From assembly GCF_964213995.1 (NCBI RefSeq), contig NC_135802.1, positions 99,572,001-99,636,000 of the forward strand: a DNA stretch of 64,000 nt. The letters run 5' to 3'. Numbering within the stretch: the first letter of the stretch is position 1; each line of letters opens with the position of its first letter. Shown in pieces: positions 440 through 35,400 of this stretch. This DNA comes from Mustelus asterias (Eukaryota). Both the position numbers and the translations under genes were made by a program. The notes below the pieces were generated by a model that saw nothing but the letters and a program-made list of their open reading frames with translations, did not search any database and was not told where the DNA came from.

Positions 440-1218
440 GGCTTTGGTTAGGCCGCATTTGGAGTATTGTGTACAATTCTGGTCGCCAAACTACCAGAAG
501 GATGTTGATGCATTGGAAAGGATGCAGAAGAGATTTACCCTCAGGATGTTGCCCAATTTGGAGGATATGGACTATGAAGGAAGATTGAACAAACTTGGAT
601 TGTTTTAATTGGAGCATCCAAGGATAAGGGGGGACCTGATGGAGGTTTACACGATTATGACAGGCTTGGATAGAGTGGGCAAAGTAAGAAGTCTCACAAC
701 ACCAGGTTCAAGTCCAACAGGTTTATTTAGAGTCACGAGCTTTCGGACGCTGCTCCTTCATCAACCACTCACCTGATGAAGGATTAGCGTTCCGAAAGCT
801 CATGATTCCAAATAAACCTGTTGGACTTTAACCTGGGTGTTGTGAGATTTCTTACTGTGCTCACCCCAGTCCAATGCCGGCATCTCCACATCTTGGATAG
901 AGTGGATAGTTGGAGTTTTTTCCCCAGGGTTGAAGGGTCAATTACTCGGGGGCATAGGTTGAAAGTGAGAGGGGGAAACTTTTTAAAAGAGATTTAAGGG
1001 GCAAGTTTTTTTGAGGGGGTGAATGCCTGGAACGTGCTGCCAGAGAAGGTGGTAGAAGCAGATTCTATAACAACGTTCAAGAGGCATCTGGATAGATAAA
1101 TGAATAGAGGGAAATGGACCACGTAGAGACAAGAAAATATTAGATTAGAGAGGCATCTGTGTCAGCACAGACTTGATGGGCCAAAGGACCTGGTCCTGTG
1201 CTGTACTGTTCTTTGTTC
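440..1218 (+). mobile_element. CR1 3' fragment
   Basis: LVRPHLEYCVQFWSP...LERMQKRF. Tail CTGTTCTTTGTTC. Confidence 0.9.
679..891. mobile_element. Palindromic Penelope-like non-autonomous retroelement with hammerhead cores (family A), inserted in a CR1
   Basis: Inverted arms GTAAGAAGTCTCACAACACCAGG...; CTGATGA...GAAAGCT core at about 769-806. 14-bp TSD CTTGGATAGAGTGG at 665-678 and 892-905. Confidence 0.8.
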
Positions 1219-3019
1219 CTCAACAGTGGCCAGCGTAAGTGATGATGCTGCTGAGCTTCTGGCTTTCAGATTGGGCCAGCAGCTCTAAGGACATGGATGG
1301 CAGTCCTGCACAGATCAGCAACCTCGGTAGCAGCTTATCCGCATTTGCTCCACGCACAATCAAGGGGGGGTGTCTTGCCGGTCAGGGATTGCATATTGCT
1401 GATATGCAATTTCCTCTGCTGCCAGATCTTGCCTTTAATGTGCTCCTAACCTCTGTGCGGTCAGGTCAATAGAATTGGTCTTTACGGATTAGCGTTTGGA
1501 ATACATATCTGGACCCTGTATTTATCTGTTGAAAGTGATTAATTGGAAACATTGCTTTCTCGCTTATCCGCCCATTCTGCTCCAACACAAGCTCTAAATA
1601 TTTAATTGTGGCCATTCCTAGAAAGAACCGAGGAGTTTGAATTCTTGTCTCGCTCTCCTCAATGTGTTTCCTTTCTTGTATAAAGCTATCCTGAGTATCA
1701 CATTACATTTAACTGTCAGGTGATGAGTTTAGTCTAAGGACACTCGGTGACAGCGGGGGTAACGGTGTCTGATTAAGTGAATAGCTCAATGTTAATTCCC
1801 TAATCGCTGCGGTTCTGGAGGGAGCCACTTGGCGGCAGCAAGTGGGTCTCGTCACCGATATTTAGCAGCAGCTTAAATTGGTGCAAACCTTTTTTTTGGG
1901 TGGGTTCCTTGAAATCTTGTGGCGGGCCCCCAGCTGAGAATCCCTGTTTTATAGTATTGGTGTAATTTGTGCCCTAGGAGGCAGAGTTTGAGCAGCTGTA
2001 GTAAAAAAGGATAAGTGGGTATGGGAAAGGACACCTTTTTAAAAGACAAAGGATTTTGTTTGCTGCTTCTCACATCCATGTAATTTTTGCAAATATTTCA
2101 ATGGCAGTAAACAGTGATTTGCCGTAGAAATATTGGGCTTCAGTTTGAGTCTCCTGGAAGTTACTTGACTCCAACGTTTAGAATGAATACTCCTCTGTTT
2201 GTGTCACCTGCAGTAATTGATCATAAATGTACAGATGAGGGATTCGAGCCTGATTAGCTCATCATCCAGGGAAATCTAATTCTCCAGCATCTGGAATGGC
2301 TTCTCAGATTCCCCCCCCCCCCCCCCCCTCCATTACCTGGAAGACCATTCCAAGTATTGATCACACTCTGCATGAGGAAGTATTTCCTGATGGTCTTGGG
2401 AATGAGTTCTTAGAATACTGGAGGAAGTTATGGGAATTGTAAGCATTGAACAGATGGCAGGGTTGGGGTGCATTAGTCATGGAGGCTGGGGGCTGTCCCA
2501 GGAACTCTGAGGAGAGCGTTCCTGAAAACTAACTGACCTTGGGATGGGATCTTGAAACATTGACATTGCTGGGATCTGCAGTATTGTGGGGACAGAGTTT
2601 CCGGAAAATGGACCCAAACTTTCCTTGATTCTACTATGCTTCACTTCCCATATGTTCCTGCATGTTGTTTACATTCACTTTCCTCAACTCCTGTCTTCAG
2701 TTTTTATTTTGAAATGTTGAATGTAAATTTCTGCTTGTTAAAAGTTAATAAACTTAAGAAAACAACATGGGGATGGGGGCATCCCTAACGAGCACCATAT
2801 GTGTATTGAATGAAATTATCAACTTGTACAGCCTTTAAAAATAAATTTTCACAAGCAAATAAATTATCCCGTAACATGCTCTAAATTTATTGTTTCTAAT
2901 TTATTTTTTCAATGAAGCCTCAAGAATAGTTCAGAAGAGTTCTTCCAACTTGAACGTTGACTCTTAATAATGTTTTCTTTCTAAATATCAAAAAACCACA
3001 AACAGTTGATATTGTTCCC

Positions 3020-32229: not shown

Positions 32230-32444
32230 TGATGTGGAGATGCCAGCGTTGGACTGGGGTAAACACAGTAAGAAGTTTAACAACACCAGGTTAAAGTCCA
32301 ACAGGTTTGTTTGGTAGCAAAAGCCACACAAGCTTTCGGAGCCCCACTCACCTGAAGAAGGGGCTTGGAGCTCCGAAAGCTTGTGTGGCTTTTGCTACCA
32401 AATAAACCTGTTGGACTTTAACCTGGTGTTGTTAAACTTCTTAC
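32230..32444. mobile_element. Family A element (variant arms) with an intact hammerhead core at about 32344-32388
   Basis: CAC-CTGAAGA-A-GGGGC(TTGGA)GCTCC-GAA-AGCT-T-GTG. TSD CCCAATCTACAAA at 32217-32229 and 32444-32456. Confidence 0.82.
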
Positions 32445-35400
32445 CCAATCTACAAAGCCAAGTATCCCATATATTTGTTTAACTCCCTTATCAACTTACC
32501 TAGCCCCACACACAGATTTGTGAATATGTTCCCTCAGGTTGCCCTGCTCTTGTGCACATCCTCAAAATTGTATCATTTCGATCATACTGCCACTCCATGT
32601 TGCCTCTCCTCTCTCAAAGTGTATCGCTTTATACTGTTATCTGCATTCAATTGCATTTGCCACAAATCTGCTCATTTCACCAGCCTGACTGTCCTTTGGA
32701 CATCTGCAACCATTCTATTTACTATTTGCTATGATGGCAACTTTCGTATCATCACCACAGTTTGAAATGGAAATTATACTCCCTACTCAAGTCTAGATCA
32801 ATTCTATAAAACAAGAAAAACGATGAAGCTAATACCAACTCCTGGCAGACCCCACTGTTTCTCTCCTATTAGATAAACTTCCATCCAACGCTATCTGTCT
32901 CCTATTCCTTAGCTAATTGCATGCCCAAATTGCCATTATCTCACTAATACCATGAGCATTTATTTTCAGTTGGCAATCCTTCAGTCTTCTGCCGCTTCTT
33001 CCATAGTAAGAAGTCTCACAACACCAGATTCTTTTATAACTGAGAAGGATTGAAAGATTGTGGTTAGAGTTTCTACTGTCTTCACCCTAGGTTCCCACAG
33101 GAATTTAGGATGTATCAGGTGGAGCGACATAAAAACTTGCAGGGATGGCAAGCTATTTAACTGCCCCTTTTTATTTTTATCATATCCAATGCCACTGCTA
33201 ACTTCCCCCCCACCCCTTCCTTACTGTGACATTGGCCTGGTTTTCATCATGGGAATCAGAATAATTCCTGACTTCACACACCCATCTCTGGAGAAAGTAC
33301 TCACAAGGATGAGATTGTTATTGCCATGGGTGCATGCTACAATTTAGCCAGCCAACCTGGGAAAGAGGTCAAAGACAGCCACAGGGGCTGCCAGGTGCCA
33401 AGGCTGGCAATTCAAAAGGCATGCCTCAGTTCTGTGGGACTTCAGCTCCCTAAGTCCTCACCCCTCATAGCTCTTCACCCTACCCCCCACACATACACTC
33501 TCAATGCCCCATCCATGCTACCTATTGCCCCTATACCAAGCTACGGCACTTCCATGCCCATTAATGCTTAATGAGATTTGGCTGAGACCCCAAAAATTCA
33601 GTATTCTGATAAAATACTTGAACCCCATGGAAAACATTGTCTGGTTGACAGCTCTGGCTCTCTGATCTCCGCTGTCAATTGCACAATGTTTATTTACACA
33701 AGGTTAAGAGATTTCAAGTGTTTGCAGTTTTGGCTATTGATATGTTAAACTGTATGGATGATTGACACTTTTATTGCCTTATGATAAAGAGACATTTTTT
33801 TAAACATGGTTGAAAGTATGAATAAATAACTGCTCTATAGCTTACATTTACACATTGTATTGGCCCTGTGGTTCTGTGCACTATACAGTGGGTCAATTGG
33901 CATGGAAGTGCCATAACTTTGCATGGGGGCATGAAGGGCTCTGAGGAGAATGTGGAGGCATAGTCTGTCATAGGAAGCAAGGAAAACCTTTGGAACTTAG
34001 AATCCATGACCAAGCCTTTTGAAAGCTATGGTTCACAACACTTCTGAGGTGCCATGAACCACAACTTTGAAAAGTTGGCCTAACTCTTTGAAAATTGCTG
34101 AGATCTAGGACATGTCTATCCCTGCACTGGAACTGGCCAGCTGGGCATGCCAGCTGTGGGCTCACCACCTGAACCAGCCCGCACCCTTAAAAGGCACTCT
34201 TGAAACTTTGAACAACCAGGAATGGGGTTGGGAATCCCAGAATCAGATTCCGCCTGCCATTTTTAAACTGCTCCCTCGTCATCCCAACTTAGCAAAAATG
34301 CAGGTCATTAATTTCATTTTCTTCTTTTGTGAGGACCAATGCAAATTACTCATTCAGTGCCTCAGTCATATCTTCTGCCTCCACAAGAAGATGCCCTTTC
34401 TTCTCCCTAGCCGGCCTCAACAATTTTTAACACTCCTTTTCTTACATGTTTATAAACAATTTTTGTGTTTCCTTTTATGTTACTCATTGCTCTTTTCTCA
34501 TGCTCTCTTTTCGCTCTTCTTGCATCCTTTTTAATTTTCTCTACACTTTCGGTATTCTGCTATTTACCGACCTATCCTGTACCTGATATTTGTCATAAAT
34601 CTCCTTTTCTATTTTACTTTAATCTTATTTCCTTTGTCATTCAGGGGCCATTGGATGCCCCATCTTTTGTTCTTATGAGAACCGATCCACATTTGCCTTG
34701 AAGACTGCCTAGTGCTCATTCAATATAATTCTGGCCAATCTTTGATTCCGGTCCACTTCTCTGCATTGAATTGTATCTACCATGTGCTGCCTGATTCATC
34801 TGCCTATGCCCTCATAAATCAGTTACCAACATGTCACTGTTTACTAAAGGAACAAAGCAGAAAATTCAAATCCAAACATTCATCACTTTTGCATCATAAG
34901 TGCTCTGGCCCCAATCTTGAGGTAAGAGCAAATGAGTCTCAGATTTCACCGCAGCCTGATTAATGAAGCTGAGAATAAACACTGGGTGGGCATTTGATGT
35001 AATTGTACTTAACAGCAAAAAAAACATTCTGGATTGAGTGTTTTTTGATAGCCCATAGTGTTGCTCTGATATTATCTAATGTTCAATGGGCGGGACTTTT
35101 AACTTCTGTGGGTGTAAAATAGCTGCTATGCTGCCTGTTAAAAACCTCACCCAATATTCATAGAATCATACAAACCCTACAGTGCAGAAAGAGGCCATTG
35201 GGCCCATCGAGTCTGCACCGACCACAATCCCACCCAGGCCCTATCCCCATATCCCTACATATTTACCCGCTAATCCCTCTAACCTACACATCTCAGGACA
35301 CTAAGGGGCAATTTTAGCATGGCCAATCAACCTAACCCGCACATCTTTGGACTTTGAATATTCTTTTCAATTAGCTTCAATGGAATTGAGATTTGGGCAG

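Follow-up and report, generated by a model that had tools for sequence, protein, structure and literature searches.

What are the short palindromes that recur within 32 kb of one another in the genome of the shark Mustelus asterias, and what put them there? The DNA in question is a 64,000-nucleotide stretch (assembly GCF_964213995.1, contig NC_135802.1, positions 99,572,001 to 99,636,000 of the forward strand; hereafter the window), and the initial annotation had read its palindromes as a non-coding, ribozyme-processed family akin to short interspersed nuclear elements (SINEs), without an RNA polymerase III (Pol III) promoter, that parasitizes the reverse transcriptase (RT) of a Penelope-like element (PLE). 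Our analysis leads to a different answer: each palindrome is very probably a one-off, extremely 5'-truncated inverted insertion of an autonomous, endonuclease (EN)-containing shark PLE, of Neptune type by its linker motif. Alignment indicates two pieces of the element's pseudo-long terminal repeat (pLTR), placed head-to-head between target site duplications (TSDs) of 12–14 bp, with one arm ending at or just before the start codon of the element's open reading frame (ORF) and the other ending 31–38 nt earlier.

The four related palindromic copies first described (c1, 679–891; c2, 16745–16961; c3, 31836–31973; c4, 32230–32444) are borne out, as is a stub near 33005, which is a short-arm piece, and the 64-kb window holds no fifth palindromic copy elsewhere. 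Read in the sense of the hammerhead ribozyme, every arm is the same stretch (leader, core, AATAAA and untranslated region, UTR), and alignment identifies this stretch as the pLTR/5' UTR of the element: a leader of ~10 nt, a minimal hammerhead, AATAAA, ~90 nt of UTR and the ORF start codon. The arms lie head-to-head and point outward in all four copies, and a tail is found on one end only, the outer end of the long arm lying 75–77 nt from a common anchor and that of the short arm 39–44 nt from it. The inverted arm had been thought variable in extent; its outer end is in fact near-fixed, and the variable part is the centre, which differs in 4/4 copies. The long arm goes further 5' in c1 and c2 and the short arm in c3 and c4; the inner end of the furthest-reaching arm is 9–12 nt 5' of the core in c1, c2 and c4. 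There are two subfamilies, c1/c2 and c3/c4, with private variants common to both arms of a copy, and the arm-to-arm mismatches (8/85, 6/89, 0/41 and 1/74 aligned bases in c1 to c4) are in keeping with c3 and c4 being younger than c1 and c2.

What do the flanks say about how these copies arrived? A long TSD of its own had been claimed for each copy, and this is what we find for c1, c3 and c4, whose TSDs are exact (14, 12 and 13 bp, the last being 12 bp if the shared C at 32444 belongs to the element) and score 14, 12 and 13 in a search that never exceeded 10 on 300 random position pairs. The 13-bp TSD of c2 has two neighbouring mismatches (TG against CA), the change expected from CpG decay; its score of 8 was equalled or exceeded by 11/300 random pairs, and taken alone it is only suggestive. 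The stub has no TSD-like flank of at least 7 bp within about 470 bases rightward. Copy c1 sits inside the end of a long interspersed nuclear element (LINE), and its 14 TSD bases occur once in two uninterrupted paralogues (45883–46294 and 8218–8614); aligned to these paralogues one flank at a time, the left and right sides of c1 overlap by exactly 14 bases. A single contig of organism C can be aligned on either side of c3 and c4 and is 398 bp short of the window; the absence of both copies plus one TSD each would account for 377 bp. We infer that both sites are apparently empty in that organism, the contig's middle piece not being among those listed, and these are the same two copies whose arm pairs are near-identical. 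A contig from organism B extends into c2 (X3 record 12, ending at 16935), so that organism B shares this copy. Additionally, contigs of organisms B and C both cease aligning at 32971 though they go on, so that an indel sets the stub region apart from that of both relatives. Run X1 is identical to the window over 8 listed pieces (0 other letters).

Short, non-coding units with inverted arms between TSDs could also be miniature inverted-repeat transposable elements (MITEs) of a DNA transposon with long terminal inverted repeats. The TSDs, however, are of unrelated sequence and of no fixed length (12, 13, 13 and 14 bp), the ends are asymmetric by 31–38 nt, and the terminus continues into an RT-bearing ORF, as described below; this link to a PLE ORF largely refutes the MITE explanation, which we consider extremely improbable. 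A possible identity with MER6/V-SINE was likewise dropped, MER6 being listed under Mariner in PMC5753468 and the available part of that source offering no tie to the shark element.

If these are PLE insertions, where is the PLE? An autonomous Penelope element sharing the terminus had been anticipated, and a partner with RT and a GIY-YIG motif was indeed found by way of overlapping shark proteins. Three lines of evidence join its ORF to the palindromes. The first comes from a 40-residue translation begun in the c3 long arm, for which P0001 was the sole match among 29 candidates (E 0.033), and over the element part 20/21 residues of the tail peptide are identical. At its N terminus P0001 has a piece of PLE ORF that shares 87% identity with P0002 (Mustelus asterias XP_078061335), and the sequence in its middle reads as the DKG region shifted by one base (46/52 residues compatible versus at most 25 in 20 shuffles); ORF piece, frameshifted DKG and tail match together mean that a 630-nt contig joins ORF and terminus. 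Second, P0003 (Heptranchias perlo) and P0027 and P0107 (Rhincodon typus) have HLHI, the residues encoded by the window's tail, directly before the ORF start M, and P0012 (R. typus) has a variant of the tail-frame residues directly before the ORF-start region; in all, tail-frame residues occur in 4 gene models out of 157 proteins inspected, the majority of which do not extend to the ORF start. Third, the loose-end consensus before 32229 in X21 and X10 (two related species) is the reverse complement of M-T-T codons; P0002 starts M-T-T-I, and the ORF of P0003 starts M-T-T as well. In other words, the "fixed end" of the palindromes lies, on this sequence evidence, at the start codon of an autonomous shark PLE.

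The rest of the partner protein can be followed in P0007 (H. perlo, 54 cluster members) and P0008 (Scyliorhinus torazame), which overlap P0002 at 82% and 81% identity over 24% of P0002 and have RVT_1, DKG, YIDD, CX4CxxC and a GIY-YIG-type motif with two cysteines. P0006 has all of these features in one 881-aa ORF that is 54% identical to P0002, and the CX4CxxC linker is present in P0006, P0007 and P0008 alike. A CX2-5CxxC linker marks Neptune and Nematis (PMC8557442; this and the other published descriptions cited here are drawn from the available parts of each source), and we call the partner Neptune type by this motif only, a motif also found in Nematis. The nearest named relatives of the partner protein come from sharks. 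As a side observation, P0165, P0175 and P0107 have pieces of PLE ORF fused to predicted shark proteins with host-gene names (a LINE RT piece in the case of P0107); these fusions are probably gene-model artefacts.

What, then, is the role of the hammerhead? One had been assigned to each copy as a central unit. Cores of the form CUGANGA-A-stem II-GAA-AGCU-H do occur in c1, c2 and c4 (0 in 100 shuffles); c3 and the stub are without a hammerhead, and the motif is not central, being the 5' part of each arm and hence present in sense and antisense. Two of the three cores (c2 and c4) passed a pairing descriptor, c1 failing with stem I lost and a mismatch in stem II; Rfam returned no hammerhead match in the window. 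Stem II had also been described as varied yet paired, and the only differences in the window are a single A-U pair turned G-U and changes in the loop; no pair has changed on both sides in compensation. Across subfamilies (window plus loose ends), N7 is any of the four bases and H17 any but G, and this variation appears consistent with selection on the parent's pLTR. The cores resemble the minimal PLE hammerheads of PMC4209133 in the unpaired base between A9 and G10.1, the G10.1-C11.1 pair, the palindromic stem III and the short stem I. That source describes pairs of minimal hammerheads, one on each strand and separated by 100–700 bp, as well as many solo motifs left by truncated PLEs; in the shark copies, by contrast, the opposite-strand pair abuts directly, and no shark example was found in the available part of that source.

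Cleavage does not appear to have shaped the copies. Six of the eight arms run 5' through the predicted cut, and their templates were therefore uncut; of the other two arms, both in c3, the short one ends within 1–2 nt of it and the long one starts downstream. Neither end of the element coincides with the predicted cut. We also considered arms beginning at the ribozyme cut, given that 6/15 joints shown land at 32378–32385, and rejected this because a subfamily indel lies there and the intervening letters include bases 5' of the cut. By equilibrium folding only, the first stem II pair (G10.1-C11.1) has probability 0.0 in the whole palindrome, and stem II has a pair probability of 0.89 (c2) and 0.28 (c4) in the arm alone; a transcript of either strand of a head-to-head palindrome yields the antisense arm first. 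The whole palindrome is, in this folding model, predicted to sequester its ribozyme. In some copies the loose end before 32343 (X1, 32 contigs, agreement 0.63) is a non-palindromic 30-mer with a pyrimidine-rich run and then AG, a few bases before the hammerhead leader. By analogy this could be an intron acceptor, such as has been described for the Penelope element of D. virilis (PMC4209133).

These observations bear on the reading of most copies as a dedicated non-autonomous family, SINE- or retrozyme-like, in which RNA copied from the palindrome is cut by hammerhead dimers and returned to the genome in trans by the PLE protein. Several things speak for it: copy number is high without an ORF in the window, a single centre joint recurs in all four runs and in the order of 10^2 copies, the cores of other subfamilies vary at the hammerhead-tolerated positions N7 and H17, and non-autonomous PLE derivatives and in-trans mobilization by pLTRs have been published (10.64898/2026.07.22.740005, PMC3846280, PMC8557442). 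On the other side, the centres differ in all four copies, with 4047 joints beyond those shown; the antisense arm is always transcribed first, with the stem II pair at probability 0.0 in the whole element; six of eight arms pass the cut site; there are no tandem units; and core conservation is accounted for by selection on the parent's pLTR. A dedicated family therefore seems unlikely to us; what the palindromes contain is pLTR/5' UTR of the partner itself, as far as the start codon. What stands of the earlier Penelope interpretation is the PLE link itself, a minimal hammerhead of type I in which an unpaired A precedes stem II, the palindromic AGCU stem III and retrotransposition with variable long TSDs; what falls is the separate ribozyme-processed family. 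The absence of a Pol III promoter also holds up: the copies share no B box, no tRNA was found, and one B-box-like 9-mer, in c1 only, is at chance (24 found versus 25.65 expected). Heads of 5S and 7SL type were covered by Rfam only, which gave no match at gathering score in the window, only sub-threshold microRNA (miRNA) hairpin matches around c2–c4. Pattern scans returned 0 matches in metagenome contigs and 0 in viral contigs; 2 matches in prokaryote genomes were lone 20-mers in unrelated flanks and were rejected as chance.

How abundant are such insertions? In X21 (raw reads of organism B, 1922.5 million letters), three bins with c2–c4 stand at about 3100–6700x depth against a baseline of 0.7x, the mean of ten low bins of 30 chosen by the analyst. 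This corresponds to roughly 5–8x10^4 copies, a rough figure that applies to organism B rather than to the window's species, with about 0.4% of X21 letters falling on these three bins. The reads hold over 4000 distinct joints (15 shown, 4047 further), in a table that is blind to centres aligning straight through the reference; summed contig depths were not used as copy numbers, except as a rough ratio for one joint. The stub arm (33005–33027) and the short antisense arm at the best-supported shared joint (16869–31916) halt at one and the same base, hinting at a preferred stop or join position.

By what mechanism would a PLE leave such debris? We envisage that the RT/GIY-YIG protein would make a staggered cut with 12–14-nt 3' overhangs and that both target ends would prime, one at each of two reverse-transcription start sites bracketing the tail. 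The cDNAs would be only 60–130 nt long, halting near the 5' side of the hammerhead, and would be joined at their inner ends by short microhomology; alternatively, a single cDNA might fold back on itself. The ribozyme would be a passenger from the parent pLTR that does not define the ends, and the palindromes would mostly be dead on arrival. In c3 and c4 the short arm holds sequence absent from the long arm, reaching further 5', and so was not simply copied from it; twin priming accounts for these two copies better than does fold-back from the long arm, although later deletion could also give the pattern. Of the four TSD bases nearest the tail, 3 (c1), 4 (c2) and 3 (c3) agree with the element's continuation (background 5.5% for at least 3; post hoc). 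A more specific model, which we put forward only tentatively, is twin target-primed reverse transcription, in which a dimeric Neptune-type RT/GIY-YIG protein with a 12–14-nt stagger would use both target ends as primers on the 5' pLTR of the mRNA that encodes it, producing tens of thousands of shark insertions, a minority of which may re-amplify without a Pol III promoter. One target end would pair with the start-codon region and the other would prime about 35 nt upstream; both cDNAs would run off near the 5' end of the transcript, about 10 nt before the hammerhead, and be joined head-to-head.

Could the palindromes instead have formed after insertion, through hairpin-driven deletion or recombination that removed the middle of longer PLE insertions carrying an inverted pLTR at each end? 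Long inverted repeats are prone to deletion. Copy c3 is wholly without a core, P0017 has an antisense arm translated upstream of the ORF start, and an inverted pLTR flanking a longer unit is a known arrangement (PMC8557442, PMC3846280). But c3 and c4 are young (0/41, 1/74), have perfect TSDs and are already minimal, and the clustering of inner ends 9–12 nt 5' of the core in c1, c2 and c4 is unlike random deletion. We judge this route improbable.

Direct, truncated insertion of the PLE is the reading that we favour, and a number of points weigh against it. Terminus, RT and EN were not seen together in any single DNA record, and the ORF is tied to the palindromes stepwise, by predicted proteins that overlap, by gene models in which splicing may intervene and by loose-end consensuses of 30 letters, whose agreement is only 0.36–0.37 overall. 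Pfam gave no GIY-YIG family for P0007 or P0008, in which the motif was identified by pattern, and a tblastn search of PLE proteins against the window found no PLE ORF remnant, only tail and arm frames (one further match was a LINE RT at 7569–7718). Concerning priming, the microhomology test was post hoc, the c4 TSD matches the continuation at 1/4 when 2 extra element bases are set aside (3/4 counting them), and the Poseidon element of PMC11167929 initiates without homology, 111–118 nt inside the ORF; the 4 copies may fit either twin priming or fold-back plus later deletion. Finally, the centre joint 16869 to 31916 stands at a depth of about 3490 versus about 12 for single copy in X1 (51 reads in X21), a rough ratio that makes it common to the order of 10^2 copies, and it is seen in all four runs; several other joints are at 10–65 times single-copy depth in X1. 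Recurrent microhomology among 10^4–10^5 copies could be the source of shared joints, and a minority of palindromes may have turned into re-amplifying non-autonomous elements without a Pol III promoter.

How does this compare with known systems? EN-containing PLEs leave an inverted 5'-truncated pLTR plus an optional 30–40-bp tail at one end, with TSDs of 8–10 bp (PMC3846280, PMC8557442), and the insertion architecture is already published for PLEs. The shark copies are like these complex insertions in the head-to-head inverted pLTR, the palindromic junction, the tail at one end, the variable TSD, the hammerhead in the pLTR and a partner with RT, DKG, CX2-5CxxC linker and C-terminal GIY-YIG motif. 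They differ in being reduced to two pLTR pieces, in TSDs of 12–14 bp versus 8–10 bp in A. vaga PLEs, in a tail that ends at the start codon, whereas published tails include 12–22 codons, and in a copy number of the order of 10^4–10^5. Partial-tandem (direct) pLTRs around a full ORF are not found in the window. The Poseidon element PAc of Anolis carolinensis (PMC11167929) has its tail between two RT start sites; its protein cuts and extends both strands and is predicted to form a dimer, and insertion draws mainly on uncut RNA and does not need cleavage. The shark element is alike in having two putative start sites separated by the tail, a hammerhead upstream and insertion from uncut RNA. In PAc, the ORF begins at stem II and RT starts 111–118 nt inside it, whereas in the shark element the ATG is about 120 nt after C3 and the start sites would be at and about 35 nt before the ATG, which leaves the stumps non-coding. 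By its linker motif the shark partner belongs to a different clade from PAc. Non-LTR retrozymes, reported in one chondrichthyan genome (10.64898/2026.07.22.740005), are similarly non-coding, with a type I hammerhead and an origin in a PLE pLTR. Retrozymes, however, are head-to-tail tandem units with a hammerhead in each, whereas the shark copies are head-to-head pairs, each with its TSD, and no head-to-tail hammerhead array occurs in the window.

Table 1. Positions of the palindromic copies, their arms, hammerhead cores and TSDs in the window.
Feature	Position	Strand	Remarks
c1 left TSD, 14 bp	665–678	+	exact repeat at 892–905; once in two uninterrupted LINE paralogues
c1 short, tail-less arm	679–763	-	begins within hammerhead core, ends 44 nt past anchor
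c1 long arm with hammerhead, AATAAA and tail	764–891	+	tail stops just before ORF start codon
c1 minimal hammerhead core, decayed	773–801	+	predicted cut after 801
c1 right TSD	892–905	+	TSD search
c2 left TSD, 13 bp, 2 mismatches (TG/CA)	16732–16744	+	score reached by 11/300 random pairs
c2 long arm with tail and decayed hammerhead copy	16745–16872	-	arm alignment
c2 short arm	16873–16961	+	holds the c2 core; copy also in organism B
c2 hammerhead core, stem I 4 bp, stem II 4 bp	16876–16904	+	predicted cut after 16904
c2 right TSD	16962–16974	+	TSD search
c3 left TSD, 12 bp	31824–31835	+	TSD search
c3 short arm	31836–31897	-	inner end 1–2 nt from subfamily's predicted cut; core absent; X1 loose end behind 31898
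c3 long arm with tail	31898–31973	+	frame 31915–31977 matches P0001 at 20/21 residues; end corresponds to residues before PLE ORF start
c3 right TSD	31974–31985	+	TSD search; c3 and c4 sites apparently empty in organism C
c4 left TSD, 13 bp	32217–32229	+	TSD search
c4 long arm, tail 2 nt longer than the others'	32230–32341	-	inner end halts inside stem II
c4 short arm	32342–32444	+	holds the c4 core
c4 hammerhead core	32352–32382	+	predicted cut after 32382
c4 right TSD	32444–32456	+	first base common to TSD and element end
stub of short arm	about 33002–33030	-	no TSD, no hammerhead

LINE pieces abound in the window (RVT_1 at 7479–8372), which is vertebrate genomic DNA. A LINE RT fragment at 7030–9300 (+; RVT_1, E 2e-23), which we take to be of CR1 type, has a 25-bp tandem repeat before it (6930–7061) and near its end (8728–8797). 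There is also a second, older high-copy repeat (36550–36719, 27227–27340, 53038–53101 and 62152–62235), of which the first occurrence has inverted arms and a decayed hammerhead-like centre, with TSDs that are not convincing; the 27116–27679 bin is at about 1030x depth in X21, and this repeat probably represents stumps of another PLE family. An inverted pair of about 205 bp at 61805–62009, with a decayed CUGAUGA...GA(C)AAAA core per strand, pointing outward, and no clear TSD, is a third PLE-like end. Additionally, a frame for ribosomal protein L39 (42982–43185, -; PF00832, E 7.9e-23) lies within GC-rich repeats and is likely a retrocopy or a piece carried by a repeat, and a broken DDE_Tnp_4 transposase fragment (56906–57780, +; PF13359, E 4.9e-9) is presumably Harbinger-type.

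A search of the literature, outside Repbase, Dfam and supplements, returned no description of this shark PLE-terminus family. The family is ordinary PLE debris, though abundant, and there are practical consequences for annotation: copies of this kind may wrongly be labelled as MITEs, SINEs or miRNA hairpins, and the element's frames occur inside predicted shark proteins. The origin of inverted pLTRs and tails is unresolved in the PLE literature (PMC3846280, PMC8557442, PMC11167929), and the value of these palindromes is as a natural data set, in which both ends, the junction and a long TSD lie within about 200 bp. If twin target-primed reverse transcription were true, the inverted pLTR and the tail would be explained in one step, and the explanation would be testable from genomes alone.

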